42,458 nt of DNA from contig CAUYUJ010000303.1 of the NCBI GenBank assembly GCA_963575745.1, positions 620,001 to 662,458 on the forward strand, read 5' to 3'. The position numbers and the translations under genes are program-made. The notes under the pieces are model-generated. The model was not told the origin of the DNA. It ran no database searches and was given only the letters and a program-made list of their open reading frames with translations. Origin of the DNA: Prorocentrum cordatum. Taxonomy: Eukaryota. The stretch's first letter is position 1. Each line of letters opens with the position of its first letter. This document shows positions 22,501 to 41,105 of the stretch, in pieces.

Positions 22501-24507
22501 GCAGGCTTTTCGCCGATCCAGGGCGGCGCTTGCGATGCCCTCAGCCAGAGCCCCCGCGGCCTCGAGCACCATGGCCAGCTCCCAAGCCAGCTCCACCGAG
22601 CCGCGCCACGCCGCGGCGCCGCCCATCTCAACCGCCACTGCGCGAACAGGCGCGCGCCCCATGGCCTGCGCGCGGCGCGCTACCGGCAGCAGCCAGACGG
22701 GGCGCCCGTCGAGGGGCCCAGCTCCGCCGCTGGGCTAGGGGAGCAGTAGGCCCCCTGGCTCGGCGAGCCCGCGGGGCCCGGTGCCAGCGGCCTCCGCCTG
22801 TCCCAATGCGTCCGCGGCCCAACCGTCCAGCTCCGCAGGGAGAAGGCGGAGCGCGCCCGCGGCCCCACCGTCGAGCTCGGGCTTTTTCCACGTCGGCACG
22901 CGCTGCAAGATGCTCGCCGCGAGGTCCGCGGTCCAGGGCGCGCGCGGCGGGCAGGGCGGGGGGCCGCCCAACTCCCGCAGCCGCTCCTTCCCGGCTGCCA
23001 CTCGCGGCTGCCGCTGCCGCAACTCGCTCCGCGGACCCGCGAAGAGGGGGGGCCGCGCCGCGCAGCCGCCGCGACGCGCGAGCAACCGCGGCCCGTTGCC
23101 CACCGGCGCGCCCGCGCCGCCAGCGGCGACGGGCGGGCGGGGCACGGGTGCGGAATCAACAACGCCCCACGTTGCGGATCCACAGTTGTAGAAACGCCCC
23201 TGCTGGTCCGTCAAACAATCGCGGCGACAGCCGTCGCGGCGCCGCGCCCCGGCAGCAACGCTGGCCTGCCGCCGTGCCTCCCCCGCGCGCCCCAGCAACC
23301 CTGCGGGCCCCTCCCGCCGCCGAAATCGCCGCGAGGTCCTGCGACCAGGTCGCGTCTGCGGCGCCGACGGCGCGTTGGGCGGCCAGCGCGCATGCCTGCT
23401 GCAATCCGCGCAGCCGCCGGGGCTGGGGCAGCGTTGCATCGGCGACGGCGTCCGCCACGTCTTTACCGCCGCCAGAGGTGGGGGGTGGCAATGAATCCGC
23501 CAAGTTGCCGCCGCGCGCGGGCGCTCCGGCGTGGCCGGCAGTCCGCGACGCACCGCCATCCACTCCGCCATGGAAGCATGCAGCCGTTGCCAGGCTTCCA
23601 GAGAGGCTCCCGCGAAACACGGTGAAATCCTCCAGTCGCGGCAACGCAGCTTTGCTATGCCCCACCTGCCAGAAGCCCCAATGCGCAGCAGGCTGGCTGT
23701 CGCCACCGCGCATTCTCCGACGAACCATCTGCTCCACGTCGCCCTTGACATGTTTCTCGCCTTTCCCCAGCCATTGCCTTGCATCGGCGACCGCGCCCAC
23801 GAACACATCGCGTGGGAAGGGGGGGCGCGCACTCTGGGCGCTGGCTCATTATTTTCGGAGCGCGCGCAGCCAGGTCGCTGCGGGGCCGCGCCGTTAGTTT
23901 TGCCCGCTCTGGGGCGCCGCAAGAACTCGCCATTCGCACGCAACTGCGCGGGCCTTTTCGCGGTGTCTCGGGGCCTCGCGGGGGGGGGGTGTAGGTTTCT
24001 TGGGGGCCTCCTTGGGGATTCTGTGTGTGTGTGTGTTATTTTTTTCTCGGGGCGTCTTGGGCAGTCGCGGGGTGCTTTTGCTCCGTCGGGCCCCGTCGAA
24101 AGTCGTTCCGCGGTCCTCTCGGGGGCGCCCTGGAGCTTTTTGGAAAGTCTCTTGGGCCTTCGGGGGGTTATTGTGGGCCGTTTTGGGGGCCTCTTCGGGA
24201 CATCAGGAGCCATTTTGGGTAGTCTTGGGGGCCTTTTGAGACAAGCTGGGACTGTTTGGGTGTCATTTGGGGGGCTGTTTTCGAGAAAAACAAAAACAGA
24301 AACATGCAAAAATGGCTTGACTTCTGGAGGTGCTCTTAAGGGCCCCGTCTGGGGCCTTTTGAGACCGTCTTGGGGACGTTTGGGTGGTCTCCTGGGCCGT
24401 GTTGGGGCCATCGTGCGCCGTCTTGGGGCTGCCTTGGGCCGTTTGGAAGCCATCTTGAGCCGTCTGGAGGCCTTCTTGGACCTCCAGGAGGCCTCCGAAG
24501 CCGATCT

Positions 24508-24792
24508 ACTTTAAACGGAGAAGGTTAAAGGCGAGGTATAAATCGAGCATGTACCGCTGCCGTGCCTGGCTCAAGCCGGGCCCGGCCAAATATGTGATTG
24601 TGCCTCACCGAGGCGCACGACTTGTATCTGAGATCGGAAAATACCTTTTCCATTGACGATGCCCATCCTATCCTTTACTCCAGATCCCATGCTTCGTCTC
24701 GCTCTCTTGCTCATGCGATATGAGCCAAAGCCTGGGATATGGCAACGCTTAAAGCGTAACACATACCTAAGCTTACCAGCTTGTTTTCGACT
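24508..24792 (+). repeat. 5' LTR (shared portion; may be 5'-truncated)
   Basis: Colinear with 40821-41105; 11 substitutions in 285 bp counted by eye. Confidence 0.92.
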
Positions 24793-25967
24793 TGGTAGCG
24801 GAGCTGGCTACACTCTCGTGTGGCTGGCTCTCGCTCTGATTCCTGTAATCCACGGCACAACTTGGTGGACTACTACTACGGTGGAATACCATGTTGCGCC
24901 GGCTCTGCGAGGAGCGGAGCCAGTCCGCGATCGAGCTAGCGGGGCAACCCGCGAACTCGAGACGCTCTCTCCTACTTCACTGCGCCACTTCACTCTCGAC
25001 TTCCACCAGATGCCAATCGGCAACTCGATCGAGAACGTGGTCACCCTGCGGGGCTACCCGCAGCGGGGCCACCTGCATCCCGTGCCAGTCAGGCGCCTCA
25101 CGGCTACTACGCCAGAGCCTGACAAACCACAGCCTAAACCAATCACCGAAGCCGAAATGCACATGCACTGGATTAAGATAACTATCTTCGGCATTCTGTG
25201 GGTAATAATGGGATGTGCTGTGGGATACATGCGGCAGGGGATGGACGACACGCGTACTACTGGCCCCTCATGGGACCCTGCCGGTACTACGCCTTTTCGC
25301 GAATACGTTCGCGAAGTACATGCATGGTTAAACGTAACGAGTGGCAATATGACACCACCACAACAAGCTGCAGCACTACAACGAGGCCTTCAAGGTCTGG
25401 CTCGTCGTATCGCCATGCAGGTCCCCTCCCAGATCATCAATTATGGTGTAACTGTCAATGGACAGCCAACGGATGCAGTAACCATATATACTGTACTTAC
25501 TGAGCACCAAATTTGAAAATCTGGAAGATGAGCGCCAGCTCAACTCTGGCACTGCCCTTATCGACTTTCGCGTCGAAAGGGGCGAGCGAATCGACTCAGT
25601 GTTAGCTCGATTCGAGATGGCCCGTGACGAGGCTAACTCTGTTGGATTTGTCATCCCCAACTTTAAGATCCTAACGCTGATTCTCTTCAGAGCGTTAGGC
25701 GTTGGCGCGTCACGAGCCCAACACCTGCTGGAGCCCTTTAATCATCAGATGCCCCGAACGCAAGCAGACTATGACAGGCTGCTGACCAGGATGAGGAACT
25801 ACGGACATGTTGCCGAGCGCTCTCCTGGCAACATTGCGGGTATCTTCGCAGGGCACCACTCACATGCAGGTGTCTACGCCACGACTGCGGGGTCACCCGC
25901 TGGTCCTGGCGAGCCAAATCCCTGGGCTGACCCAGCCGATATGCCCAACGAGGCCACTGCCTTTTAG
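24653..25967 (+). pseudogene. gag: Gag N-terminal/capsid-like region (two frames joined by a frameshift near 25490)
   Basis: PSWDPAGTTPFREYVREVHAWL...QQAAALQRGLQGLARRIA, then in the shifted frame LLSTKFENLEDERQ...IDFRVERGERIDSVLARFE, which resembles retrotransposon Gag. It lies directly after the PBS. Confidence 0.7.
24793..24807 (+). promoter_or_regulatory. Primer-binding site, probably initiator tRNA-Met type
   Basis: TGGTAGCGGAGCTGG starts immediately after LTR homology ends and resembles the canonical tRNAiMet PBS sequences TGGTATCAGAGC and TGGTAGCAGAG. Confidence 0.8.
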
Positions 25968-26244
25968 GGCAGACTGGCCAGGCATCGGCAGAGGCAGCTG
26001 AGGCGAACGCCTGTCGAACTACTCGCCAGGCGCCGCCTACACTGCAAGCCCGCCCTCGGGCACAACCCTCTGGGGCCAAGCGGAGTCATCCGCTCAAGGG
26101 TCTCAGCCACCCTCACCGTTTGAATCTGGCACTGACACAGATACCTCATCTGACGATGAGCACAATGGAATAGTCTCTGCTGGTAATGACTATCCAGCGG
26201 ATGACACTCACCTTTCTGAACAACAAAGAGCGGAAGCCGCTTTT

Positions 26245-29200
26245 ATGGCTTATCGCAAATCAAAACGCCGTTGGAGGCGCTTTATGAAGAAACCAGTCAG
26301 AAAAGTGAGACGTGCAGTACGCCGACATTTCAAACGATTTGGAAAGGGTCGTGGCAAAGGGGGTCGCAGACGCCGTATGCATGGTAGGGGTATTACTGCT
26401 TTCCTCACGTCCTTAACTGATATAGCCTTTGAAGAAGCTCTTATCGGAGGCAAAGGTCGGGGTCACAGGCGGACCTCCGGTAAGGGAAAAGGGCGGAGGG
26501 GCAACCCTAGGGACGCTTCTGGCAATACTATGAAGTGTCATACATGCGGTAGCACAGAGCATTTGCGCGATCAATGCCCGAAGGGGAAAGGAAAGGGATC
26601 CGTACATTTGGCTCAAAATTCTTTTATGGACGACATAGACTACATTGACTACGAGTATTACGTCAATCCAGAAGCGGCTCCCGCTGCGGGCTCCTCCACG
26701 TACTACGTGATGGCCCGCTACGCTGAAGTAACCGTAGCCCTGGAAGACTACGCAGTGACCCTCTTCGACGAGCTCCACGGCTGGGACGAAGTCGACGAGG
26801 TCGCGTTCAATGCTTGGTTCGGTCTTCCAGCGGGGCCACCCGCCGGCGACGAGGTCTCCGAAGCTGAGACCGTCCCGGCGACCGAGGAAGAGCTCACCGC
26901 CGCGCTGGCACCGCAGGTGATTGGCACGCCGTTGCTGCCAGATCTTTCGCGAGCTGGCTCGGAGGCGGGAGGCGCTGATGACGAAATGCGGGGCCATCCC
27001 GCGTATTCTGACTCCGAAGAGGCCGAAGAGGACTATAAGGACATGCTCCAAGAGCAGGTCGCAGAAGCAATCCGGCTCCTGAGTGCGCCAGCACATCAGC
27101 AGATAACCATGAACGACCTGCTGTCGCGCCCAGGGGCCGCACGGCTGCGTCCATACCTGGGTTCGGACATGTCGGCACCTCAGATGCTGACAGCACTCCA
27201 GGCTCCAGCGGGGTCACCCGCCGAAGTGACGCCAGCCGCAGCAGCGGGGCCACCCGCTTGGTCTATGGATGTATTTATGCAGGGCTGCGACCAGATGGAC
27301 CTCAACGACCTCACGATGGAGCAGTTAAACGACATCGGGTACTTCCGAAGCCCGTATCAACACGTATTCATGGTCCAGGACAGCTCAGAGGACTCGGAGG
27401 ACATGCGCTACGCCCAGAGGGACAGACGACCATCGCCTCCCCGAGACTCAGAGCATGACGATCAAAGGCCAATGGAACGTGGTAGTGCGTCAGCGGGGCC
27501 AGCCCGCAGGAGGAGCCGTTCAGCTCCCAGACGCCCTACACATGATGCATCGGGCTACCCGTGCAGCACTGAGCACTCCGTTGGCGTATCCGCTCAGCAC
27601 GTGCCGGAGTGGTACATCAATTGGTACCCCGGCTACTCGATGGACGTGATCCGCCACTGGTATTCTAAGGAATACTGCACCAAAAGGGACGAAACTGGCA
27701 TGATAATACGTACCAAGGGTGGCAAGACCAAAACGCCAGAGGCTTGGGACAAAAGGGCTAAGAAACAGGAGATCATCAACGATCGCAAGACATACAGGAA
27801 ACAAGTATGTCAGTGCGAGCCCTTCAAAGGTCACATGCGCAGGTGTCCGATGGACCGCCCCTCCAGGAGTCCTCATCACGGTGAGACCCCGTGGAATTGG
27901 TCTCATGGAGATGACGCTGGCAACGTCCATGATCCTAACAAGGAGGTCCCTGGAGGAGGAAAGCGCATCACCGAAGCCGATCGCGTCCCCATGACCGAAG
28001 AGGTGGCCAACATCGTCAGGGAAAATTGGGTACAGCTTCCCAATGACCATCGCCTCAAGGAGTGGAACCGCCGATTCCATAAAGAGGCGGGGTCACCCGC
28101 AGGATCTAGTAAAGAAGCGGGGTCACCCGCAGACGCGGCGCCAGCCGCTGGGTCCGCGGACGAAGATTGGATAGCTGTTGCATCTGCTGCTGGGTCCGCC
28201 GCCGGCACTGACCACACCGAACTGAATGAAGAATGGGCGGCGGAAGACGGCTCAGAGAATCCATTCCCTGATGGAAGCGCCTGCTGGTACTACAGCTCTT
28301 CGGCGCAGAAGTGGTTGTGCACGAGGGTAATCTACCGCCATGAGAATGGCAAGTACAAGCTGGCCATAAAAGGTACTGCCGACATCGACCAGATGAGGCA
28401 GGTCATCCATGATCATGGACAGCCAGATGGCCCTCCTAGAGACCCTCCTGGTCCACAACCGGGTAAGGGCAGCAGACCACCTCCAAGACCTAAAGCCGAC
28501 TCCTCGTCTTCACCGACTCCTGCGAAAAGGCACCCGTCCAAGAGCCCCGAAGGAACACAGGGGCGGGCGAAGGCCAGAGGGATCGCCAAGACGGACGACC
28601 TTGAGCTGGAAGATCCTCCCGGTCTGTCCGTGACGGAGAGGAGGAAGGCTTTTGCTGGACCATCGACCCCGATGCCACCGGCTGCCCAAGGCGATGTCAA
28701 GGACGTAGCTCGCAATCAGCCTAAGGCAGCCTTCCGAGGTGACTGGACTCCAACTCTGCATCAGCCGCGCCTTGCACCACGACCAGGTTCGGCACGAATG
28801 AAAGCGCAGCCGAAGCCTGAAGCTGGGATGAGGTCGGTGCGGGCAGAAGCAGCCGCCAAAGCTAAGGAGGACAAGGGCTCTGCGGGGCCACCCGCTAAAG
28901 CGGCGCCAGCTGCAGCAGCGGGGGCACCCGCAGAAGGCACTCTCTCAAGAGAAGAACGCTTCAAAGTCCTCAAGGAATTTGGCGACCGACAGAAACTAGC
29001 CGATGATGCAGTGGCTGACCAAGGTCACCCGCACCCTGGCGCGGAGTCATCCGCTGGAGTTGCCTCGTCAGCCGCAGGCTCTGCGGGGCCACCCGTTAAA
29101 GCGGCGCCAGCTGCATTGGCGGGGCCACCCGCGCGTTGGCAGCCAGTGATGTCTGTTCTCAGGAACATCCCTCTGGGAGCCATGGAATATTGGCAAGGCA

Positions 29201-31098
29201 TTGAAGGCAAAGGCCCGAAGCGCACCTCAAACCCACGAGTCACTCGAGACGATACAGATCGATACGAGGTCATTAATTGCCCTGATCGTCGTAACTTCGA
29301 GTGCCGCAACGACTGGGAACGTGAACAACAAGCCGTGGGAAATATGTTGCGAGACAGGCCGCCATTGCGCGTCGCGCAGCACAGGGCAGAGCTCATGAAG
29401 GTCATGGAGAAGATTAATACAGATCCTACTCTGCCGCGCGACTGGCAAATGACCAAGGTGTCAATATGGTTCTCTACAGCCCTACGCCATAGTCCGTATT
29501 GGAAGGATGGATTCAGCCGACACTTCGAAAATATCAACACTTTCGATCCATACGATGGCTGGGTTGTTATTGACGATTTGTTGACAAACTGGACTGAAAA
29601 CGATCAGTGGAAAGGCTACCGTGACATGCATGATGTGCTGATCAAGGGCAACCCTCACTGTTCATACGTGTACTGGGTGTTGCTAAACTGCTGCGAGATG
29701 ATCGACGGTCATGGTATGCAGAAGGGCAGGCTCCAGATGAAGTGCGTCGAGGACAGCATGAAGCGACATCCCAGATTCCGACCAACGGTACGCAGGCCAC
29801 AATACTTCATCAGAGCCACGAGCGGCCATAGCAGCCCAGGCATCCACTGCCCCGAGTCGCTCTATAAGCCGATCACAACATGGATGAAGGAACCAGACGA
29901 CCCAGTATACTTCATCCACGGGACACAGTGGGAACATGTCAAGGGCATCCTTGATAATGGCCTTTCATGCCTCGCACAGGACAACCCTACGGGGAAGGGG
30001 GGGCGCCAGTTCGTACACGGCTGCCCCTACCTCCCGGGTGACCCGAGGATTCAATCGGGCATCCGTCCTGACTCGGAGGTGCTCATATTCTGCAGCATCA
30101 ACAAGATGCTGTCCAGTGGCTTTTCCCTATGGAGGTCAGCAAATGACATCGTCATGACACGGGGCCACGACGGCCGTATACCGCCCGATCATATCCTCCA
30201 GATTGTGAGCATTGCGAAATATCGGGTCGGCGAAGCCTGGAGCAATCCGCTGGCTTATGACAAGTCGCGGAGGCGGGGCCAACCCGCGGACAGGATTCGC
30301 ACCGATGACTACCTGCCACTTAAATTGTGTGACAGAACTCTGGGTGTAATGGAGGATCACGCCATGTACCTAAAGGGCTGGACTAAGACGGACGGTCGCC
30401 CATTCAATTTGATCATGACCGAGCAAGATGTTGCTCCACGACCGTACGACACACAGACAGTCCTCATGATGAATGCCCAGGAGGACGAGGTCATGCCTGA
30501 AGCGGGGCCACCCGCAGGTGCGGGGACACCCGCGGTAGACACCTCGGAAGGTTCATGGCAACAAGTGGTCACACCAGTAGCAACGGTAGCATCTCCTTGG
30601 AGGCCGGACCAGCAGACATGGGTCCAGGCCCTCAACAGCTATTTGACACCAGCCGACGTCTCTGGACTGACCGATCAGCTATATCGTGCTGACCCGTGGG
30701 CAGTGCATACAGGTATCCAAGACGCACAGCAGAGGAACCTGCGCACTCCTGCGGGGCCTCCAGGCGTCCTAGGACCACAGCCACAACGCCCTCCGCAGCA
30801 GGCTGGAGGTGCGAGGTTTGTCCCTATGGCGGCTCAGATGGTGGCTCGCCGTTTCGGACTCCGCCGTCTGAAACGAGCGAGAACAGCTTGTGGCAAAGAC
30901 TCCAGGCGATTCGCGGGAATCCGGCGCTCGCAGCAGCACTCCAGGCGACCACTCCCTTTGGCACTCCGAGGGGTAGTGAAGGAGGAGTGGCTGCGGGGTC
31001 ACCCGCCGAGCGAACGCCTGCGGAGCCACCCGCGCATGCGGGGCCACCCGCTGACGGACAGCAAGGTTCAGACTATGAACGTCGGGCAGCCAACTTAA
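26245..31098 (+). CDS. Polyprotein segment (1617 aa): basic region, CCHC zinc knuckle, long disordered linker, SH3/Tudor-like module and Tpt1/KptA domain
   Basis: CHTCGSTEHLRDQC (CX2CX4HX4C) at 26536-26577; Tpt1 motifs at about 29452-30213. The coding frame probably shifts near 30830. Confidence 0.88.
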   Translation: MAYRKSKRRWRRFMKKPVRKVRRAVRRHFKRFGKGRGKGGRRRRMHGRGITAFLTSLTDIAFEEALIGGKGRGHRRTSGKGKGRRGNPRDASGNTMKCHTCGSTEHLRDQCPKGKGKGSVHLAQNSFMDDIDYIDYEYYVNPEAAPAAGSSTYYVMARYAEVTVALEDYAVTLFDELHGWDEVDEVAFNAWFGLPAGPPAGDEVSEAETVPATEEELTAALAPQVIGTPLLPDLSRAGSEAGGADDEMRGHPAYSDSEEAEEDYKDMLQEQVAEAIRLLSAPAHQQITMNDLLSRPGAARLRPYLGSDMSAPQMLTALQAPAGSPAEVTPAAAAGPPAWSMDVFMQGCDQMDLNDLTMEQLNDIGYFRSPYQHVFMVQDSSEDSEDMRYAQRDRRPSPPRDSEHDDQRPMERGSASAGPARRRSRSAPRRPTHDASGYPCSTEHSVGVSAQHVPEWYINWYPGYSMDVIRHWYSKEYCTKRDETGMIIRTKGGKTKTPEAWDKRAKKQEIINDRKTYRKQVCQCEPFKGHMRRCPMDRPSRSPHHGETPWNWSHGDDAGNVHDPNKEVPGGGKRITEADRVPMTEEVANIVRENWVQLPNDHRLKEWNRRFHKEAGSPAGSSKEAGSPADAAPAAGSADEDWIAVASAAGSAAGTDHTELNEEWAAEDGSENPFPDGSACWYYSSSAQKWLCTRVIYRHENGKYKLAIKGTADIDQMRQVIHDHGQPDGPPRDPPGPQPGKGSRPPPRPKADSSSSPTPAKRHPSKSPEGTQGRAKARGIAKTDDLELEDPPGLSVTERRKAFAGPSTPMPPAAQGDVKDVARNQPKAAFRGDWTPTLHQPRLAPRPGSARMKAQPKPEAGMRSVRAEAAAKAKEDKGSAGPPAKAAPAAAAGAPAEGTLSREERFKVLKEFGDRQKLADDAVADQGHPHPGAESSAGVASSAAGSAGPPVKAAPAALAGPPARWQPVMSVLRNIPLGAMEYWQGIEGKGPKRTSNPRVTRDDTDRYEVINCPDRRNFECRNDWEREQQAVGNMLRDRPPLRVAQHRAELMKVMEKINTDPTLPRDWQMTKVSIWFSTALRHSPYWKDGFSRHFENINTFDPYDGWVVIDDLLTNWTENDQWKGYRDMHDVLIKGNPHCSYVYWVLLNCCEMIDGHGMQKGRLQMKCVEDSMKRHPRFRPTVRRPQYFIRATSGHSSPGIHCPESLYKPITTWMKEPDDPVYFIHGTQWEHVKGILDNGLSCLAQDNPTGKGGRQFVHGCPYLPGDPRIQSGIRPDSEVLIFCSINKMLSSGFSLWRSANDIVMTRGHDGRIPPDHILQIVSIAKYRVGEAWSNPLAYDKSRRRGQPADRIRTDDYLPLKLCDRTLGVMEDHAMYLKGWTKTDGRPFNLIMTEQDVAPRPYDTQTVLMMNAQEDEVMPEAGPPAGAGTPAVDTSEGSWQQVVTPVATVASPWRPDQQTWVQALNSYLTPADVSGLTDQLYRADPWAVHTGIQDAQQRNLRTPAGPPGVLGPQPQRPPQQAGGARFVPMAAQMVARRFGLRRLKRARTACGKDSRRFAGIRRSQQHSRRPLPLALRGVVKEEWLRGHPPSERLRSHPRMRGHPLTDSKVQTMNVGQPT
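29452..30213 (+). other. Tpt1/KptA NAD+-dependent RNA 2'-phosphotransferase domain within the polyprotein
   Basis: Motifs in family order: SIWFSTALRH, DGWVVIDDLL, KGRLQ, IRATSGHS, FIHGT, ILDNGL...GRQFVH, SGIRPDSEVLIF, RSANDIVMTRGHDGRIPP. Confidence 0.88.
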
Positions 31099-32834
31099 GG
31101 GCACAGGCTACTTTTCTGCAGCAACAAGCTGATAGAGTGCCCAGCCTGTTGCGGAACCGCAACATAGATGTTACGAATCATGGCGACATTCGGCCTCTCT
31201 GGAGCTGGACTTCTGAAGATGCTCCAAATGCTGATCCCACGAATCCATATCGACAGGTGTTTATTCCAGGAATAGCATCACACCCAATATATGGATGGGA
31301 CAATCATGGACCAGCAGAGGCACAGGCCATGGACGCGCCGATGTACCCGGAGTACTACGCGCAGATGAATAATACTCCTATGATTGCGGGGCCACCTGCG
31401 AACAAATACACTCGGAATCTTGCCAATGAGATGTTTCGTTTGCAGTTTACACGAGCGGTCGATGCGCAGTCTATGCCGCACTACGCCTACATGCCCACGC
31501 CGACGGACCCCGAGACCATAGTTCAGCCAGCTGGTCTCGCGGTGCCAGCCGCTATGGGCAGCATGCCAGACTACATCCGCGACGTGCACGACACGCAGCA
31601 AGCGATACTGGCATCTAGGCAGCAGGCTCGGGACAACGCCAGGCTGCGCCAACAGCGCGCGATCCAGAGAAGGATCGAGCGTGAGACCCAAGCGGGGACA
31701 CCCGCAGACGCGGGGCCACCCGCTGAACGGACAGATAGACGGCCGCCACCGACGCCATATCGGGAGGGCGAAACCACTTTCGAGCGACAAGCTCGGACTC
31801 GCCCAGACGTGCCTGCTCCAGTTATTTCAGACTACAACTTCACACAGTGCCCAATCTGTATGGACACCTACGAGATGGGCACCATAGTGTGGAGACTGGC
31901 GTGTGGGCACTTCTTCCACGATATATGCTGGGATCGTGTTGCTCAGCAGCACGTCCGCAATCAGCGGCCAGGTGCGCCGAACGAGGCCCCCTGCGCTGTA
32001 TGTCGTGGGCCGGGCATAATTACAGCACATTTCCCGTATGCTGGACAGCGCGACGCTGAGTCGGAACAAGCGCGCCAGCAGGAAAGGTACGTGGTAGATG
32101 CCCAGGAACTGCGTCGGCTGCGGGAAGCAGTGGAGGCACTAGAGGCTCGAGCCGCACACTCGGCGGAGCCATCCGCACGTGCCCCAGCTGCACAGACACA
32201 CCCCTGGCCAACGCCAGAGCAAGGCATCCAGATGCCAATCCTGCCTACGCTTCGAGCGCAGGAGCCCCCAGCAGCGGGGCCACCCGCCGAAGCGGCTCCC
32301 GCCGCCAAAGCGGGGCCACCCGCAAATGGACCTCCGAATCCAGGATTCCTGAGGGCAATGGAGGCCAATATCAGGCGGAGTGGCAGGAGCGGAGGCGGGA
32401 CGCGCAGGCTGACTGGATCATCCAGGACCTCACGTGTGGCGAGCCCGGTCAGCGCTAGGAGCCGGGCAAGCGCTGAAAGTGCGGAGGCAGCCCAGTTCCA
32501 CACCACATTCATGATTGATACAAAAGGGCTGACCTATGCACGTGACGACACGGACACGCTGCCGCCAGGAGGTGAATGGATGTCCACACTCTCTGCGAAT
32601 TATTGGGTTCTTGAACAGGAACCAATTACCGTGGAGGAGCGCCGCCAATATGAGCAGATGTGGTGCACCGAGTTAACCATGAGTCAATGGGTGCTTGAAC
32701 AACGCCTGTTGAAAGGTACACTCGGTTCGCAGATCACGTACCACACCAATGACCATGGTACAATGGCTCTGGCAGCGCGAAATGGACATTCTTTCCTGAC
32801 GAAGACGGTATGCCCTGCATCTCGTTCATGCTAG
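30696..32834 (+). CDS. Polyprotein segment containing a RING-H2 finger (31848-32003)
   Basis: CPIC-x14-C-G-H-FF-H-DI-C-W-x20-CAVCR matches the C3H2C3 pattern. Confidence 0.8.
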   Translation: MGSAYRYPRRTAEEPAHSCGASRRPRTTATTPSAAGWRCEVCPYGGSDGGSPFRTPPSETSENSLWQRLQAIRGNPALAAALQATTPFGTPRGSEGGVAAGSPAERTPAEPPAHAGPPADGQQGSDYERRAANLRAQATFLQQQADRVPSLLRNRNIDVTNHGDIRPLWSWTSEDAPNADPTNPYRQVFIPGIASHPIYGWDNHGPAEAQAMDAPMYPEYYAQMNNTPMIAGPPANKYTRNLANEMFRLQFTRAVDAQSMPHYAYMPTPTDPETIVQPAGLAVPAAMGSMPDYIRDVHDTQQAILASRQQARDNARLRQQRAIQRRIERETQAGTPADAGPPAERTDRRPPPTPYREGETTFERQARTRPDVPAPVISDYNFTQCPICMDTYEMGTIVWRLACGHFFHDICWDRVAQQHVRNQRPGAPNEAPCAVCRGPGIITAHFPYAGQRDAESEQARQQERYVVDAQELRRLREAVEALEARAAHSAEPSARAPAAQTHPWPTPEQGIQMPILPTLRAQEPPAAGPPAEAAPAAKAGPPANGPPNPGFLRAMEANIRRSGRSGGGTRRLTGSSRTSRVASPVSARSRASAESAEAAQFHTTFMIDTKGLTYARDDTDTLPPGGEWMSTLSANYWVLEQEPITVEERRQYEQMWCTELTMSQWVLEQRLLKGTLGSQITYHTNDHGTMALAARNGHSFLTKTVCPASRSC

Positions 32835-33140
32835 ACATTGGGTCCAACGTGAACATCATTGGAGCCAATACGGCGCGAACCTTCCAGGAGATTATGGCCA
32901 GGTACAATCACAGACCTGCCATATGCACCCTGAGCAAGACCCTCTACATTAACGGTGTCGGTGAGGGTGCTGCGATATGTCGGAAGATGGGCAACTTCAA
33001 GATCGGGGTGCAATACGCCAATGAGGCAAGCCCCCGTATCGAGGAGTATGCCTCCAACATCGCAGAAGGCTCAGGTGCCAATCTCCCGGCCATCTGGGGC
33101 CTAGGAGCCATGGAAGCACGTGACACGATCATCGTGCTGA
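32822..33140 (+). other. Retropepsin-like aspartic protease domain
   Basis: FMLDIGSNVNII (D-x-G), flap-like INGVGEG and LPAIWGL (equivalent to the ILG motif), located upstream of integrase. Confidence 0.72.
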
Positions 33141-33402
33141 AGCCAGGCTACCAGAAGGTTATCTTCCCCAGCGGTGACTACACCCTGAAGCTGGGAAGGG
33201 GTGCCAAGGTCCTGAGGGCGAAGAAAACTCCCTCGGGACATCTCGCGATTCCCTGCGGTTTGTATGACGGGGCTAAAAGCCAGACGGTCACGAACACCTT
33301 CACAATCCGCAGCAGTCGAGATGGCTACACCGAGACGGAGAACGAAGAGGATCCCGTCAGTGCGGGGCCACCCGCCGGAATAAGTGCGGGGCCACCCGCC
33401 GG

Positions 33403-33413
33403 AAAAAAAAGTG

Positions 33414-33451
<38 letters not shown>

Positions 33452-33511
33452 AAAAAAAAAAAAAAGGGGGTGGGGGGAAAAAAAAAAAAAAAAAAAAAAA
33501 AAAAGGAAAAG

Positions 33512-33557
<46 letters not shown>

Positions 33558-33567
33558 AAAAAAAAAG

Positions 33568-33598
<31 letters not shown>
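33403..33598 (+). repeat. ~195-bp interrupted poly-A tract inside the polyprotein region
   Basis: Directly visible; flanked on both sides by agtgcggggccacccgccg. Confidence 0.9.
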
Positions 33599-33601
<3 letters not shown>

Positions 33602-34162
33602 GTGCGGGGCCACCCGCCGAAGCAACAGCGGGGCCACCCGCGACGGGACAGTCCATGACCGTCACGACCGATATGTACATTGTCGAGCCGTACATCGACA
33701 AGCAGCTCCTGGAAGACACGACCCGTTTGATCGTGGACAGGACGCTGAACAGCTGGTGGGAGGGCCAACAGTGTCCCGAAGGGACCTGGCACATATGAAG
33801 GATGCCCTGAAGTCCAAGATATTTTGGGCAGTCCAGGAGGCGGTGAATAAATGGACGCCTGAGAACCAAGCGGGGCACCCGCGACACCGCCACCACCACC
33901 AAGCTACACGGGCGGAGGTTCGTCGGACTCTGCGGGGCCAACCCGCGTGGAGATCGCGAGCGTAGCCGCACCAGCGCCTCCTGCGGAGCCATCCGCTAAC
34001 AGCATGCCCCCGAGTCAGACGGCAACGTGGTCACACGACCGCCGCTGACGGGGGCAGGCGGGCGCGCCGGCGGCGCTCGCTTGCGAAGAGAAGCCGAATA
34101 CCGGCCTCCTCGCGACATACGTTGGCCGCGCTGAGGGCCGAGAGGAAAAATATCATTCAAAA

Positions 34163-34730
34163 TGTCTTGTCATCGAAGATATTCGCACAGCTTGCGCTGA
34201 ACTCCGAACCCGTGGATATATATGCGACCGGATTACCCATAATGAGGTAATGACTTCAACTGGAACACAGTATTTGGGAAATTTGTTGTCAGGAGACTAC
34301 AATATGTTGTGGGTGGCCACACCCTCTGATTGGTACGTTCGTACTCCAGGAAAGAGGGCGGGACCACATTATCAACGTATGCAAAATCTCCTGATCAAAG
34401 CGCGTGCTCTGAGAATGCAGATTGTTATCCTGGGGCCACCCGGGTATTTCTGGAAACAGGGTCCGATCAAAGATGTTATCGAAGATTTGAAGCTAAGCGT
34501 TATACGAATCAGACTCTGTCATTTCGGTATCAAGTTTGACCGATCCAGTAAATATCCCAGTGGTTCTTATATACAAGTTGCTACATCTTGTCCTCATATA
34601 CGATAAACTTATGGAAATGTACTTGTGGATCACACAAGGAGCATGATTTGGATTGGTATGGCCAAGATCAGCAACGTGCCGAGCTTCGGTATAAAACTTT
34701 GGCTATTATTATTGCACGCTTCCTTGATCA
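34163..34730 (+). other. Degenerate C5-methyltransferase-like domain (copy 1)
   Basis: GDYNMLWVATP, IVILGPPG..W, IRLCHFGI, YIQVAT and KCTCGSHKEH parallel the motif order of copy 2, but there is no glycine-rich motif I or catalytic Cys. Confidence 0.45.
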
Positions 34731-35487
34731 ACTCGATAAAGCCAACATGATCAGGAATGAGCGGAGTGCGGTGCACCTCAGTGTGTGTACACGCGTTGAC
34801 AAAAAGGTCAGACACTACGTCCAATGTCCACAAAAGGGCCCTCAATGGGACCATGTTGTTCGTAGAGTCACGACCGACCTGGACACGAATAAGATCGTTC
34901 AAGATATCAGAATCCAGGATCAGCCAACTGGGTACAACTATGAAGCTCCATTACCTGATGGGGTTACAAACATCAGTACTCGGCTATACTGGGAGCCTCC
35001 GGCTCCAGTTCTTCATGGCGACGGTGAGTCGCGAAGGCCACGCCCAAAGCGTGTGACGATCGTCGATGACGATCGATCTCCTCCCCCTTCGATTGAGCGT
35101 TGCCAAACGCGACCCACCAACAACTTTCCTGAAATTCCGCCACTTCCTGACTTAACAGCGGATCCCTCCGCAGCGGATCTCTCCGCGGAAACTGCGTTGC
35201 CCACTGATGCCAGGATAAAACAGAAAGAAAAGCAGAAAGCTGACAAATAAGCCGGCATCAAACCGAAGAAAGTCCCGAAGAAAGTGGAAGATGGTAACGA
35301 CGACTGTGGAGAGGACCTCAAAGGGCTTGACTGCTCCACATATTTCAACGACGTTCCTCTTGACGACTCGGACTCGGACAGCGAATCAGAGGACATCTTC
35401 ATTATGTTACCGGCGGGGCAACCCGCTGACTCACATGCTGATGTCTTCTCGATAGTCCAGTCGCTATGCTACGGCAGAAATAATCAA

Positions 35488-36120
35488 GTGGACATGCTTG
35501 AATTATGTGGGGGCAAGGGTGGTATATCCATTTTAAGGCCTTCAAGGGGGACTCTCGTCAGGCGGGAACTTGACAAGAATATCTATGGTTGACCTTGGAA
35601 ACTCGGAAGTACAAAGAGCAGTCCTCCACTACCTCAAGACTTGCTTTGTCAAGATCACGATTCTTCAGCCAAGCTGCAGAACTACTGGACTTCCTTCCTA
35701 TTTCAATGCACAGGTCAATCATGATACGTGGCTTAAACACCACAAAGAGGACCTGCCTCACATCACGTTCTGCGGAACAGTTGCTCTATTACAAGACGAC
35801 CTAAGACGTTTCTTTCTCAGGGAACAACCAATGGGCACGTGGGTGGATGAGATCCAGCCATGGAAGGAACTGGCACAACGCAAGGTCACTTGCCAAACGA
35901 TTATTGATCAATGCACGACTGGTCTCAAAGATTCGTTTGGACAATACATTCGCAAGCCAACACAAATGATGGCAAACAAAGAAGAGTTGTTGGCACCTTT
36001 CAGAGGCAAGCGTTGCCCAGGTAATCATGTGCACGCCAATGCTTGCAACAAAGAACTAGCAAGGGCGGCACAGTATACCCGCAGAATGCAGTCACTGATC
36101 GTTGATGCGGTGCAAATCGC
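35488..36120 (+). other. C5 cytosine DNA methyltransferase-like domain (copy 2; frameshifted near 35540-35590)
   Basis: Motif I-like MLELCGGKGG, motif IV-like ILQPSC, motif VI-like FLREQP, then IDQCTTGL, RKPT, CPGNHVH and motif X-like AAQYT. Confidence 0.65.
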
Positions 36121-36869
36121 CAAAGATATGTTTGCTTACGGTCGCGATCCATTCGCGAATCGCGAACGCAGTTACGCGTTCGTAACAAACAGTGCTGGCT
36201 ACGACTTGGACGACCCAACAATCCAGAGACACTCAAACGGAGAAATCCTGCGACCACCATCTGGCGGTCTCGGGTGCCCTGGCTGCGCAGACAACAACTA
36301 CAAACAATCACCAAGGCACAGCAGGAATCCGAAGATGTGTCGATGGTATGATGTTGAACCATACTATTGGGACTGTCCAAGCTGTAAGAAGGAATATCAG
36401 AAGAGCAATCTTCACCATGCCAAGATATCTGGCCAATGCAGATTCGCCGAAAAATGGAAGCTGCCAGATAACTTTGGTCAGCCGCGCCCAGCGGGGCAAG
36501 CCGCTCCTGCGGCGCCAGCCGCGGAAGCGGCTCCAGCCGCAAAAGCGGCGCCGGCCGCGAAAGCGCGCATACGCGCGCCTAGGCCGCCACGGCCTGGTGA
36601 GGGCGATCCAACCGCAGGCGCCAGCAGCCATGACATCACCAGAGCCGACGGGGCTAATGGTGGCAGCAGTGGCGCTGGCAGCTCTGACGACCACCGTAGA
36701 CTGCCACAAGTTGCAGCAAGGCGCGGACGCATGGAGGGAGGAGATCCTCCACCACCGCCGCAGCCTCAAGCAGAGCCGAGGCCAAGGCCAAGGCTCCCTG
36801 ATTGGACTCGCTTCGACGTTCAGCTCAGCCTCCAAAACCTGCGCAGCTTTGACCCAGCTGTAGTGCAGC

Positions 36870-37540
36870 GAGAACTCCGCAAACTCCACTTGAGATGGTT
36901 TCATGCCAAGGAGCAAAAAATGCGGATGATTCTAACCAAGGTTGGTCTGGGTGAAACCCGTTTGAGTCTGATCAAAGGCATTTGCGACTCGTGTAGAGAA
37001 TGTCGAGCCTGGGACAAACCAGGCAACACGGTGATGCCTTCTGTGTCACTGCCAGGACGTTTCAACGAGGAAGTCGAATGTGATCTTTTTTTTACAAACA
37101 GGAACATATTGTTTTTCACATCATCGACCGTTGTATTCGCTGGGCAGCTGGCACAGAGATTCCTGATAAAACCATGCATACTGTTCTCGATGCCTATCAT
37201 ACAACTTGGATGCAACATGGCCCTGCTAAAATCTTATACTCCGATGGGGAAGGAGCACTGAACAACGATACAGCAAAGGCCATCCTTAAGGCTAAGGGAA
37301 CAGAGCTTCGTATCCGAGCGCGTGGCCAACACGCCACGACTATCGAAGCTAGGAACGGCATCCTGCGACACCTCTTACACGTGATGGGAGAAGAATTGAA
37401 TAGATTAAATATTCCTCTGAATTTCATTCGTCTTTTACATGAAGCCTTGTTTGCCAGCAACGCATTTACCTTCTACAATGAAGTGTCTCCGTACAATGCG
37501 CTGTATGGCAGACAACCAGCTATGCTTCCTGATATCCCTG
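36870..37540 (+). other. Integrase (HHCC plus DDE core; frameshift in the T-run near 37090)
   Basis: LHLRWFH...CDSCREC; FNEEVECDLFF; HIIDRCIRW; ILYSDGEG; HATTIEARNGILR; SPYNALYGRQP. Confidence 0.92.
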
Positions 37541-38904
37541 TCTTGGATCATGATCAGTCCGCTGAATCATCAGATCACTCAAGGGAGGAAACAATCAGGA
37601 GGGTTAGTCTGGAGGCAATCACGCAGGCCACTGCGGTTGCCAAGACGAACAGGGCTCTTCGTACGAAGGCTACTGCTACGGGTGAATTTCACTACAAAGA
37701 GGGATATCTCGTGGACTATCATCGCCCGACCACCACGAAAGACGACTGGGGTGGATGGAGTGGTCCATACCCGGTCATCCGCAACGAACCTGACCGAGGC
37801 CAGGTCATCGTGAAGGTCGGCAGTCGCGAGGTGCGAGTACAGTATCCTGACACACGACACACGCTGTACATCGAAGCACTTATGGTCCGCGAGATAGGAT
37901 CGGGCAATACGGCCCTTCGGACAGTATTGGCCTTTATTGCCGGTCTGCCAGCGGGGAAACCCGCCATGACTTTCGGATATCTACCAGCGAAACAGGGTCG
38001 GCTGCAGATGACTGCTGCGAGCCGACTTTCGCCTAAGGTGCACTTTGCTCTTCAGTACCTCATACGCAACTACTTTCGTATTGAAAACGTTGTTGCTGTA
38101 CGACTTGCCAAGAGCCTGACGAAGTTGCCTGCTGCACCCTATGCAGACAGCTGTACACTAGTGCACTATGATAATGATGTGACCCCTGGTTTTCATTACT
38201 GTGAAGCTGATGGCACTGCCTTGAACATCTACGACATCACAGGATCTACACACTCACGCATCATCCAGTGTCTTAAATCCAGGAAGCCGCCTGCTGGATT
38301 TGACCGAGACCTCACTAAGTTTGAGGAACTCGCTGATGGTCCACCACCAAGCGAGTCACCTCCAGCAGCTGCTCCTGAGCAGCCTCCTGCGGAGAACGAT
38401 GGTCGGCTCCCGACCATCATGGAAGAAACAGAAGAAGATCTGGATGCCTTTGTCTTGAAGTCGTGGTATGCTGAACTGATGGATGACAGAACACTCCTTG
38501 AAGTTGACACAGAAGAAGTCATGCATACAGTTCCCACATACATGACAGACACACAGTGTGTGTTAGTCTCTACGACCTGTGAAGATGTGCAAGGCCACTT
38601 GCCGGAGCGGGGTCACCCGCCAGGATACGACATGGACACTTCTTACTTCGTTCCTTTATGCTCCACGGATCCGGACAGTAAATATGATCTGGACTCCGAT
38701 GAGCACGGGAAGTACATCGAGCTCTGCTTCACAGCAGACATGTCCAAAGTCGCCCTGTCCGAGCAGCAACGCCGATTGTTGGATGACAGCAGCGTCACAA
38801 CTATGCGAGTGTACGTTAGTGCTGCCTCCAAACGTGCCGTGGTCGTCAAGGAAGACGATCTACTCACGAAGGCCGATATCCAAGCAAATCCGGTCAAAGT
38901 TTCC

Positions 38905-39680
38905 AAAGCCCTTTACACAGAATTGAAGACTTGGCTTGACAATAAATGCTTTCAGATGACTGGCTTGAGCAAAGCGTCTAATATCATGACGTCACGCTAC
39001 GTATACAAATGGAAGTTTGTCAAGAACGAAAAGGGCGAGATGGAAAGGACGATCAGGTTACGCTTGGTACTCCGTGGCTTCATGGACCTTGAAGCCTTTG
39101 ATGTCGAAACCTTCTCTGGCACGGCAAGGAGGTCAAGCCAGAGACTGCTCGCAAGTTCTGCTGCATGCAACAAAGCTTGGATCAACGCTTCCCTGGACAT
39201 CAACATGGCTTTCTTGAAGGGACTGACCTATGGCGAGCTCGCCGCGGCAACGGGCGAGAAAGAGCGTGTGGTGTGCTTCACACTACCACCTGGGTCAGCA
39301 GCTGTCCTTCGCACACTGCCAGGCTTTGAGTCATATGACGAATCGAAGCATTGTCTTCGGTGTCTGAAGCCGGGGACGGGCACGAAGGATGCTCCCAGGG
39401 CATTCTCGCTGAAGCTCAGGTCCATCACTAGGAGCTTTGGGCTACAGCCTACTTCATACGACGAAGAGTTCGAGATGAGCTCAAACCTCTTGACAGCCAA
39501 GCAAGTTGATGACATCAATATGACTGGGAAGGAAGAGGCTATTGACAAGTATGTCAAGTGTGTTGAAGATACGTTTGGGAAGTGCAAACTGAACAAGCAC
39601 ACATACACAAACTGTGCCGTTCGGTACAACAAGACCGATGATGGGAGCGTCACTCTTGATCAGGACGAATACATCAAACA
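38905..39680 (+). other. Copia-type reverse transcriptase
   Basis: ELKTW, SRYVYKWK, RLRLVLRGF, SLDINMAFLKG, LKPGTGTKDAPRAF and AKQVDDI, within ORF 37174-39930. Confidence 0.93.
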
Positions 39681-39939
39681 GCTTCGTCCCATCACACATC
39701 CAGAGCTCACAGGAGCTGATCCTGAGAGCAAAGCGACAAAGACGATTTCTGACATGTTCGTCAGTCTTCGTGGCGCTCTAGCCTATGCGTTGATCACGCA
39801 GGTATGGCTGATGGTCTATGTTGTCTCACTACAACGTATCCAGGAACCGACAAACATCCAGGTACGACGACTAAACGCGGTACCAGGAAACTACAGGCAG
39901 GTCCGAAGAAGATCGTGTATCAAGCTATGACCCCAACAG

Positions 39940-40450
39940 GAGAAGTCGACCTGCATAGCGATTCTGGCTATCGTCGTCTCAACGGAGATGAAGACGACGA
40001 AGTCAAAGGCTATGGTATCCGCGGGGCTAACCTGCTGAGGCGTGGCCACACGCAAGCGGGGACACCCGTCGTGCACCTGGTGGACGCATACTGCAAGTCT
40101 CATCGACTGCAGGTGCGTTCGAGCTACTCTGCGGAAACACTGGCAGCAGCCCACAACTTGGAAGACTGCTACCCGACCATTGAAACGCTCCACGAGCTAC
40201 ACTCGGGACCATTGACCCCCACACAGTTAAAGAACATATTGGAAATGGGTGGTCTATGTATCAAAGTCACTCTGACTATTGATGCCGAGTCTGTCTTCAA
40301 GTCTTTGTCTAGCAAAGATCTGAAGAAGCCCACAGAATGTACCCTGCTTGGGCACATTAGCTGGATCCGCCAGATGATGGAGCGCGGAATCGTTGAAAGC
40401 GTTCAATGGTGTGACACGCGGGATATGACTGCCGATGGTCATACCAAAGG
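39940..40450 (+). other. Copia-type RNase H (after a frameshift near 39880)
   Basis: LHSDSGY, VRSSYSAETLA, TIDAESV, WCDTRDMTADGHTK. Confidence 0.92.
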
Positions 40451-40820
40451 TAGTATTGACCGCGCGTTGCTCCTACAAGTAATGGCCGGCCAGCAATCCT
40501 TCACCCCCCCCCCTCCGCGGACCTCGGCACCCCCCCTCCCCCGCCGCCCCCCCCCCCCCTCCCCCCCCCCACCCGCCCCCAGCAATCCTTCCGCACGAGC
40601 TGAAGAAACATACACCGTATAGGGCGGGCAGGTCGTCTCAGGACGGCCCTGCCTCCCGAGCTAGCGGGGAAACCCGCGGGCAGGTGCGCTTTAATAGCGA
40701 GGAAACTCGCCGGTAGCGAGGCTACTCGCGCGCCCTTTCCTTGTAGGCAGCCGCTGCTGCTTAGCACTGTTTTTCCGCATGATGTAGAAGTGCGGTGCCT
40801 GCTCGTCTCCTCCCCCTCCG

Positions 40821-41105
40821 ACTTTAAACGGAGAAGGTTAAAGGCGAGGTGTAAATCGAGCATGTACCGCTGCCGTGCCTGGCTCAAGCCGGGCCCGGCC
40901 AAATATGTGATTGTGCCTCACCGAGGCGCACGACTTGCATCTGAGATCGGAAAATACCTTTTCCATTGACGATGCCCATCCTATCCTTTACTCCAGATCC
41001 CATGCTTCGTCTTGCTCTCTTGCTCATGCGATATGAGCCAAAGCCTGGGATATGGGAACGCCTAAGGCGTAATATATACCTAAGCTTACCAGTGCGTTTT
41101 CGACT
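40821..41105 (+). repeat. 3' LTR (portion shared with the 5' copy)
   Basis: Matches 24508-24792; ends ...gttttcgact directly before the satellite. Confidence 0.92.

Follow-up and report, generated by a model that had tools for sequence, protein, structure and literature searches.

A short hairpin recurs along the sense strand of a 16.6-kb Copia retrotransposon of Prorocentrum cordatum and overlaps its coding sequence

Introduction

Some viral RNAs carry packaging signals that are dispersed over the whole genome. In MS2, satellite tobacco necrosis virus (STNV) and the hepatitis B pregenome, many short stem-loops are bound by the coat protein, and this binding has been measured. The hairpins known from retroviruses and elements with long terminal repeats (LTRs), including the paired GACG tetraloops of murine leukaemia virus and the leader structure of Ty1, are confined to the leader. 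Palindromic units can also invade proteins, as do the Rickettsia palindromic elements, mobile units of 100-150 base pairs (bp) that lie in frame in bacterial host genes. RNA choice and folding for packaging are poorly known in LTR retrotransposons, Copia elements especially. Here, we describe a hairpin that recurs along a Ty1/Copia LTR retrotransposon of Prorocentrum cordatum. The element spans 16.6 kilobases (kb) on the + strand, from 24508 to 41105 of a window of 42,458 nucleotides (nt; contig CAUYUJ010000303.1, positions 620,001 to 662,458), to which all coordinates refer.

The commonest form of the hairpin is the 14-mer GCGGGGNNACCCGC. When we searched for any 5-bp stem with at most one G.U pair closing a GNNA loop, the element yielded 56 hairpins on its sense strand. 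Like the signals of MS2, STNV and hepatitis B, they are short stem-loops found genome-wide, with a shared loop motif and varying stems, mostly in coding sequence. They differ in that the carrier is a retrotransposon, that one stem dominates and that they are known from sequence alone. The leader signals of retroelements offer a second parallel, since here too there is a CCHC Gag and there are tetraloop hairpins just past the primer site (24931-24960 in the window, and in tandem in two further Copia elements, L068 and L076). However, the present unit is found some 50 times, throughout the coding region and at the 3' end. As in GNRA tetraloops, a G+C-rich stem is closed by G..A, but the third loop place holds a purine in only 11 of the 56 hairpins and a pyrimidine in 45 (30 GCCA and 9 GUCA), which makes the class GNNA, or GYCA, rather than GNRA. 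With the Rickettsia elements it shares a palindromic nucleic-acid unit tolerated in proteins as extra peptide; unlike them, the unit is 14 nt long and confined to a single mobile element, and point changes have made some of its copies.

Closer in taxonomy are the plant Sireviruses, whose conserved hairpin-forming palindromes lie in the cis-regulatory part of the LTR and are linked to targeting by small interfering RNAs (siRNAs) (PMC4728375; see also PMC2829016). Both systems belong to the Copia superfamily and have conserved hairpin-forming palindromes as a family trait. In contrast to the Sireviruses, the hairpins described here are absent from both LTRs and lie mostly in the open reading frame (ORF). 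A literature search with four 14-mers on both strands gave no relevant match, only unrelated plant work, and the accessible portion of a description of Symbiodinium Copia elements (PMC5776459) mentions neither hairpins nor palindromes.

Results and Discussion

A hairpin confined to one strand of one element

The original prediction had reported about 27 exact copies of the motif in a single orientation, about 10 one-off variants and none outside the element. A count over the whole window finds exactly 27, all on the + strand and all within 24939-40677, whereas 100 dinucleotide-preserving shuffles contain 0.01 on average and 1 at most. A search allowing one mismatch returns 33 matches, again all + and all inside the element, so the variants number 6 rather than 10. 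In the remaining ~26 kb of the window there is no exact or one-mismatch copy. Two of the predicted positions were off by one (33385 should read 33386, and 35414 should read 35413). The central bases vary as had been described, with CC, TC, AC, GC, CA, AA and CT all present.

GCGGGGNNACCCGC is the commonest member of a wider hairpin class. Inside the element, the 56 sense hairpins stand against 8 in antisense; outside it, the numbers are 10 and 6. The proposal of a 5-bp-stem, 4-nt-loop unit on the sense strand is borne out by the silent sites, stem covariation, loops and frames discussed below. Besides the GCCA and GTCA loops counted above, we found GCAA (4), GACA (3), GAAA (3) and others (7). 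The stem is GCGGG/CCCGC in 27 cases and a near variant in about 14 (GCGGA/TCCGC, GCGGC/GCCGC and forms with G.U pairs); GCGGA/TCCGC occurs 4 times with a GNNA loop and 6 times with any loop. Divergent stems include GCAAG/CTTGC and GCGAG/CTCGC, twice each, as well as GGGTG/CACCC, CGCAG/CTGCG, GCGTG/CACGC and GCGTT/AACGC. In round terms, the class comprises about 50 hairpins.

The hairpins are spread evenly along the element (7, 7, 9, 9, 7, 7, 4 and 6 per 2 kb) and lie mostly between domains, in Ala/Gly/Pro-rich linkers of the polyprotein frame. The close pairing noted earlier holds for the wider class, in which 37 of 56 hairpins lie no more than 50 nt from a neighbor, most often at a spacing of 18 nt. 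No member falls in either LTR, and Rfam covariance models gave 0 matches at E up to 1 over 24400-41200.

Nucleic acid rather than peptide is constrained

Translated copies of the exact motif mostly read A-G-x-P-A, while 25048 and 38607 read R-G-x-P and 24939, if it is translated at all, reads S-G-A-T, in agreement with the frames first assigned to them. One explanation is a peptide repeat and nothing else, in which AGxPA acts as a linker or protease site and its codons are alike through recent copying. Such a repeat would account for the A-x-x-x-A frame of 34 of the 47 frame-assigned hairpins and for their place between domains, which in L076 means the protease/integrase (PR/IN) and integrase/reverse transcriptase (IN/RT) junctions. 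Because A-G-x-P-A, A-A-x-A-A and A-E-x-S-A already dictate four of the five stem pairs (in the genetic code GCN is self-complementary, while GG can pair with CC and GA with TC), a test of this explanation rests on silent sites and on other contexts.

The silent sites do not vary as they do elsewhere in the gene. When the 21 AGxPA sites encoded by hairpins are compared, wobble position 3 of the motif is G in 21, position 6 G in 21, position 9 A in 21 and position 12 C in 20 and T in one, while the next Ala wobble, at position 15, is free (C 7, A 6, T 5, G 3; Fisher test of GCG at Ala1 versus Ala5, 7.5e-9). The codons in question are also unusual choices, GGG and CCC being the least used for Gly and Pro elsewhere in the element (14% and 19%). 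Hairpin codons are used in 21 of 23 AGxPA peptides, the exceptions being 34058 and 37939.

Pairing at the fifth stem position points the same way. Among 41 GCGG-N-....-N-CCGC sites, chosen by their outer four pairs only, the fifth pair is Watson-Crick in 38 (27 G:C, 6 A:T and 5 C:G) and U.G in 1 more. Permutation gives 21.0 on average and never reaches 38 in 100000 rounds. In protein terms, this covariation joins G with P, E with S and A with A, combinations that have no protein logic and make sense only as base pairs.

Contexts outside the A-G-x-P-A frame behave likewise. We selected GCCA loops by the loop alone and removed those with canonical flanks; the stem is closed in 7 of 119, against 0.34 expected (P 6.5e-8). 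As controls, none of 91 such loops is closed on the other strand, nor any of 153 and of 120 outside the element. These loops sit on unrelated stems that encode WVATP, QGHL and RGHT. Overall, 34 of the 56 hairpins occupy frame offset 0, while 13 fall in other frames (9 at offset 2, read as R-G-H-P, Q-G-H-L or R-G-H-T, and 4 at offset 1, read as W-V-A-T-P); 9 are unassigned or lie past the stop.

Frozen silent sites, stem covariation, one loop on differing stems and the use of all three frames show selection for a hairpin with a preferred loop. They largely refute a plain peptide repeat, which we regard as very unlikely, and they uphold the earlier view that the constraint is on nucleic acid and not on protein. 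Because the hairpin forces A-G-x-P-A, a peptide that is tolerable in a linker, two codes overlap. The element provides a natural overlapping code in which structure in RNA (or single-stranded DNA) holds the four silent sites of a pentapeptide fixed, and AGxPA owes its existence to the hairpin, not the reverse.

Hairpins beside the primer site in other Copia elements

The hairpin at 24931-24960 contains the exact motif at 24939-24952, outside the A-G-x-P-A frame. The fold of 24925-24966 has a free energy of -22.9 kcal/mol and a z score of -3.95. A scan of metagenome contigs with a motif-pair pattern returned 87 loci, 84 of which are unrelated tandem repeats or high-G+C DNA; the other three, L019, L068 and L076, are the only Copia elements (RVT_2) among them. 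L068 and L076 share 51-57% of protein residues, L019 shares ~35% with both, and BLAST detected no similarity of any of the three to the window proteins. L068 is complete, measures 6.7 kb, has LTRs that are 99% identical and lies in A+T-rich DNA. The same motif-pair pattern had 0 matches in viral contigs. Scans of metagenome contigs with ORF1 (21 pattern stretches) and of viral contigs with the IN-RT frame (7 stretches) found no relative, and the motif-rich region 28699-29301 has no protein homologue among 8000 scored candidates. Four other metagenome loci (L001, L071, L086 and L061) are unrelated long tandem arrays with a 12-nt or 22-nt unit that holds the same 14-mer (GCGGGGAAACCCGC, GCGGGGTTACCCGC).

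The 11-mer of the window's primer site recurs after the 5' LTR in L068 and upstream of the polyprotein in L076. About 40-110 nt past this site, L068 has three tandem hairpins and L076 two, each with a 6-7-bp lower stem, a one-base bulge, a GCGGG/CCCGC upper stem and a 4-nt loop. The lower stems are wholly different between hairpins and between the two elements. Their leaders fold with z scores of -5.59 (L068) and -3.28 (L076), so that a structured element lies between the primer site and the body of gag in both, as in the window. In L019, five hairpins of this kind lie downstream of the polyprotein. All 8 AG.PA peptides encoded by L068 and L076 use GCGGG....CCCGC and vary solely at the loop wobble sites. 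At the RT motif HGDDFLAEG, CTTCT-TGGC-AGAAG in L068 corresponds to CTTCC-TGGC-GGAAG in L076, two silent compensatory changes.

These comparisons bear on the possibility that the hairpins are mutational by-products, that is, self-complementary 14-mers that drive slippage or template switching by reverse transcriptase or the replisome, multiply in tolerant linkers and mark rearrangement joints without serving the element. Tandem arrays of 18 and 24 nt exist, unit number differs between copies (joint 32307->32272, back 36 nt), and some deletion or rearrangement joints begin at or beside hairpins (29131->29230 and 33863->26826). Further, the A-rich tract has expanded between two hairpin pairs, and four of five stem pairs can be set by amino acids alone. 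Polarity by itself would also be expected from duplication and does not decide the matter. However, the 14-mer has not diverged, unlike the spacers and position 15, and hairpins with other stems occur in non-repetitive coding sequence and in other frames. Moreover, a structure with covarying lower stems has been kept at one place after the primer site in two elements that are only 51-57% identical in protein. Taken together, these features make a purely mutational origin doubtful.

The primer site itself suggests a different role. It reads TGGTAGCGGAGC and would presumably pair with the 3' end of the initiator transfer RNA (tRNA). Its core equals the hairpin arm GCGG(A/G)G and, with it, the inferred 5' acceptor strand; the hairpins could thus mimic the primer tRNA or primer site, engaging a tRNA-handling factor or bridging the RNA ends. 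The variant stem GCGGA/TCCGC equals inferred acceptor pairs 2-6, and primer site and stem are both common to two Copia lineages without BLAST-detectable protein similarity. The hairpins at 24939 and 40664 share GAGCTAGCGGGG.AACCCGCG, 20 of 21 bases, including the TAGCGG of the primer site. This 21-nt stretch is common to the 5' leader (24931-24960) and the 3' end (40656-40678), and a primer-site-like word, CCGGTAGCGAGGC, occurs at 40712-40724, ahead of the hairpin at 40716. The shared end sequences may serve to join the two ends of the RNA. Nevertheless, the window contains no tRNA gene and the acceptor stem is only inferred, the match covers only 4-5 bp of a stem rich in G+C, the flanks of most copies are unrelated, and the non-canonical stems are unlike the primer site. 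Mimicry of this kind is quite unlikely.

The strand on which the hairpins form is a further consideration. Single non-Watson-Crick pairs on the sense strand are biased toward G.U over A.C (7:2 among GYCA and 11:4 among GNNA hairpins, against a background of 38:41), which points weakly to sense RNA; the L068/L076 lineage has one case each way. G.T pairs are tolerated in DNA hairpins too, and the signal might act at the DNA level, either as a single-stranded complementary DNA (cDNA) hairpin in plus-strand initiation or strand transfer or as a protein-bound or modified site in integrated DNA. Each copy of the motif contains two CpGs, and the GNNA form in L068, L076 and L019 lies on the strand equivalent to minus-strand cDNA. 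Also, no clear polypurine tract precedes the 3' LTR, which raises the question of second-strand priming in a 16.6-kb element. However, a Pfam search of the element's long + strand frames found no sequence-specific DNA-binding domain and no methyltransferase, at E up to 0.01 (13 frames) or up to 1 (10 frames), so the methyltransferase-like domain once suggested as a partner of the motif finds no support. A complete change of stem with the loop kept misfits a duplex half-site. The part of a Symbiodinium study available to us describes CG methylation as the default, near-global state and Copia elements as lacking DNA methyltransferase (DNMT) domains (PMC5890265), so the CpGs of the motif need not be special, and the accessible text of PMC11572971 gives no sequence motif for 5-hydroxymethyluracil. 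We consider a DNA-level signal unlikely.

Larger structures are possible where units lie close together. Arrays of three can fold as three small hairpins or as one long one; the array that we folded, 28875-28940, can form a single hairpin of ~50 nt, the tip of which is the middle unit (-45.5 kcal/mol, z -4.81). Further three-unit arrays lie at 27208-27257, 29083-29132 and 32274-32323. A long hairpin of this type might be read by the host, as a signal for export, stability or translation of the long RNA or as a source of small RNAs. The latter has been proposed for plant Sireviruses, whose LTR palindromes are siRNA hotspots (PMC4728375). Here, by contrast, the LTRs have no hairpins, a 5-bp stem is too short for Dicer-type enzymes, and our results indicate no host factor. 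A host-directed signal therefore seems improbable.

A possible role in Gag recognition

We tentatively favor, as possible rather than probable, a reading in which the hairpins on the genomic RNA are repeated putative Gag-binding sites for packaging or condensation. The hairpins would form on the element's genomic RNA, and many of them would serve as repeated binding sites for its own Gag, through the CCHC nucleocapsid part, in selecting, pairing or condensing an unusually long RNA into particles. The arrangement would resemble a leader packaging signal multiplied over the whole genome. Slippage by 18 nt in linkers, and point changes where the protein permits them, would supply new copies. Such a role fits the position just past the primer site, the pairs in tandem, the sharing of one loop by varying stems, the even distribution and sense polarity of the hairpins, the CCHC Gag and the great length of the RNA.

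Several observations weigh against this reading. The hairpins are short, and two local folds are no better than shuffles (z -0.95 and -1.09). Some of the 56 are due to chance, as permutation expects 3.4 of the 16 non-canonical GNNA hairpins. Among the 40 of 1287 variable places listed, 0 fall in the exact motif, where ~0.9 would be expected by chance. In L068, L076 and L019, the GNNA reading is antisense to the polyprotein in 14 of 14 cases; a GNNA loop on sense RNA is therefore not general, and the stem reads alike on both strands. Because G..A was fixed in the search pattern, the loop match in these three elements is ascertained rather than independent. What is truly common to the two lineages is stem and placement, and the loop seems to be lineage-specific.

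Nor is the peptide a family-wide trait, as 150 representative IN-RT homologues contain just 8 AG.PA. With the 4 in L076 (P0005), there are 12 over 151 proteins against 3.0 expected, and 0 of the control AP.GA, a weak enrichment. At 37951, homologues keep A-G-K/R and not P-A, which is part of the 3' arm. Given the few AG.PA and this lack of retention, hairpins seem to arise where the protein tolerates them and not to be retained at individual sites. Gain without site-by-site retention fits a need for number and spread over fixed positions.

A more elaborate form of the Gag-binding reading, which we hold to be doubtful, is a genome-wide, multivalent hairpin code for recognition and condensation of a 16-kb RNA by Gag, overlapping the element's own frame and shaping its linkers into AGxPA, with a stem that copies the acceptor stem of the primer tRNA. 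If so, a single protein surface would handle both primer and genome. If this elaborate form were correct, the element would be the first retrotransposon with dispersed packaging signals and would show clearly how RNA structure can dictate a peptide that recurs. The hairpin, repeated and easy to mutate and with a loop that is well defined, also offers a direct handle on binding and packaging, and the motif is a simple family marker for the annotation of dinoflagellate genomes.

The carrier element and its features

The assignment to Ty1/Copia follows from the two LTRs and the tRNA-type primer site and from the order of domains, with a CCHC Gag and an integrase upstream of an RVT_2 reverse transcriptase. 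The last is above its family cut-off in Pfam (1.8e-9), the zf-CCHC knuckle scores 17.3-18.8 bits, under the Pfam cut-off of 20.8, and the integrase region is a by-eye call from HHCC-like residues without a Pfam match. At 16.6 kb, the element is far above the usual size of Copia elements. Its + strand holds a series of long open frames, and the breaks between reading frames coincide with sites where other copies, in contigs from sequencing runs, show small indels. The polyprotein frame stops at 40620-40622; one alternative frame is open up to the LTR, and the stretch after the stop could be coding in other copies. The features along the element are collected in Table 1.

Table 1. Hairpins and terminal features of the retrotransposon, from 5' to 3', in window coordinates
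Feature	Coordinates	Strand	Remarks
5' LTR	24508..24792	+	285-nt direct repeat, 96% identical to 40821-41105; no hairpin motif inside
Primer binding site TGGTAGCGGAGCT	24793..24805	+	tRNA-type; adjoins 5' LTR directly
Extended hairpin: CGAG/CUCG lower stem, 3x3 internal loop, GCGGG/CCCGC upper stem, GCAA loop	24931..24960	+	147 nt past primer site
Hairpin pair: 25048 (GCTA loop), 25063 (GCCA loop, G.U pair)	25048..25076	+	Offset 2, LRGYPQRGHL
Single hairpins: 25529 (TGAGC/GCTCA, loop GCCA), 25887 (exact), 26080 (GCGGA/TCCGC)	25529..26093	+	
Exact copies: 26830 (AGPPA), 27208 (AGSPA), 27244 (AGPPA)	26830..27257	+	Downstream of CCHC knuckle
Cluster: 28087 and 28117 (exact), 28135 (GCGGC/GCCGC)	28087..28148	+	Spacing 30 and 18 nt
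18-nt array of three: 28882 (exact), 28900 (GCGGC/GCUGC with G.U), 28918 (exact)	28882..28931	+	
Cluster: 29041 (GCGGA/TCCGC), 29083 (CCCGU, G.U), 29101 (G.U), 29119 (exact)	29041..29132	+	
Exact pair: 30502, 30520	30502..30533	+	18 nt apart; downstream of Tpt1/KptA-like domain
Exact 30993 and 31038 flanking A:C-mismatched copy 31020	30993..31051	+	
31386 (G.U), 31539 (GCGGU/GCCGC, U.G), exact pair 31692 and 31710	31386..31723	+	
32163 (GCGGA/TCCGC); array of 32274 (exact), 32292 (GCGGC-UCCC-GCCGC), 32310 (exact)	32163..32323	+	
Two exact pairs: 33362 and 33386, 33604 and 33628	33362..33641	+	24-nt period; flank A-rich tract 33403-33598
Middle region: 33983 (GCGGA/TCCGC), 34311 (GGGTG/CACCC), 34430 (CTGGG/CCCGG), 35097 (GCGTT/AACGC), 35413 (exact, GCAA), 35880 (GCAAG/CTTGC), 36107, 36400	33983..36413	+	Mostly other stems
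18-nt array of GCGGC/GCCGC units: 36491 (G:G mismatch), 36509, 36527, 36545	36491..36558	+	AAPAA
37622 (CGCAG/CTGCG); 37951 (exact, GAAA, AGKPA); pair 38589 (GCAAG/CTTGC) and 38607 (exact)	37622..38620	+	
Pair: 40040 (GCGTG/CACGC), 40056 (GCGGG/CCCGU, G.U)	40040..40069	+	16 nt apart, differing frames
Post-stop trio: 40664 (GCGGG-GAAA-CCCGC), 40697 (GCGAG-GAAA-CUCGC), 40716 (GCGAG-GCUA-CUCGC)	40664..40729	+	Fourth pair compensated
3' LTR	40821..41105	+	285-nt direct-repeat partner of 24508-24792, 96% identity

Two entries of Table 1 need comment. In the 32274-32323 array, the change of unit number between copies noted above comes from run X8, and the pair at 38589 and 38607, 18 nt apart, is read at offset 2 as QGHL..RGHP.

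The polyprotein includes an RNA 2'-phosphotransferase Tpt1/KptA domain (ORF 26002-31098, residues 1248-1388, Pfam 1.2e-15) and a RING finger (ORF 30693-32834, residues 385-438, Pfam), an unusual cargo for a retrotransposon. The CCHC knuckle lies ~6.5 kb from a protease-like DIGS motif, and the protease ~3.5 kb from the integrase. A protein search with ORF1 gave 4 relatives, in the Tpt1-like part only, and the named ones are Prorocentrum cordatum models with 85-90% identity there. In three such models (P0002-P0004), ...DVIRHWYSK is fused straight to VMERFG..., skipping ~576 residues (557-1132 of ORF 26002-31098); these models reflect either a gene-model artefact or a family variant that is shorter.

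Sequence of the element is present in many marine, estuarine and freshwater sequencing runs, with very high contig depth. Within the coding region, a 196-nt A-rich tract (33403-33598) would read as poly-lysine, and contigs from other copies appear cut there. Other copies skip a C-rich tract at 40530-40580, shortly before the polyprotein frame ends, with a joint 40503->40593 in 4 of 4 runs. In the 40780-40820 segment just 5' of the 3' LTR, where a clear polypurine tract is missing, the last 13 bases are pyrimidine-rich on the + strand. Immediately beyond the element, a 193-nt satellite of ~7 units occupies 41105-42458 of the window, beginning right at the end of the 3' LTR.

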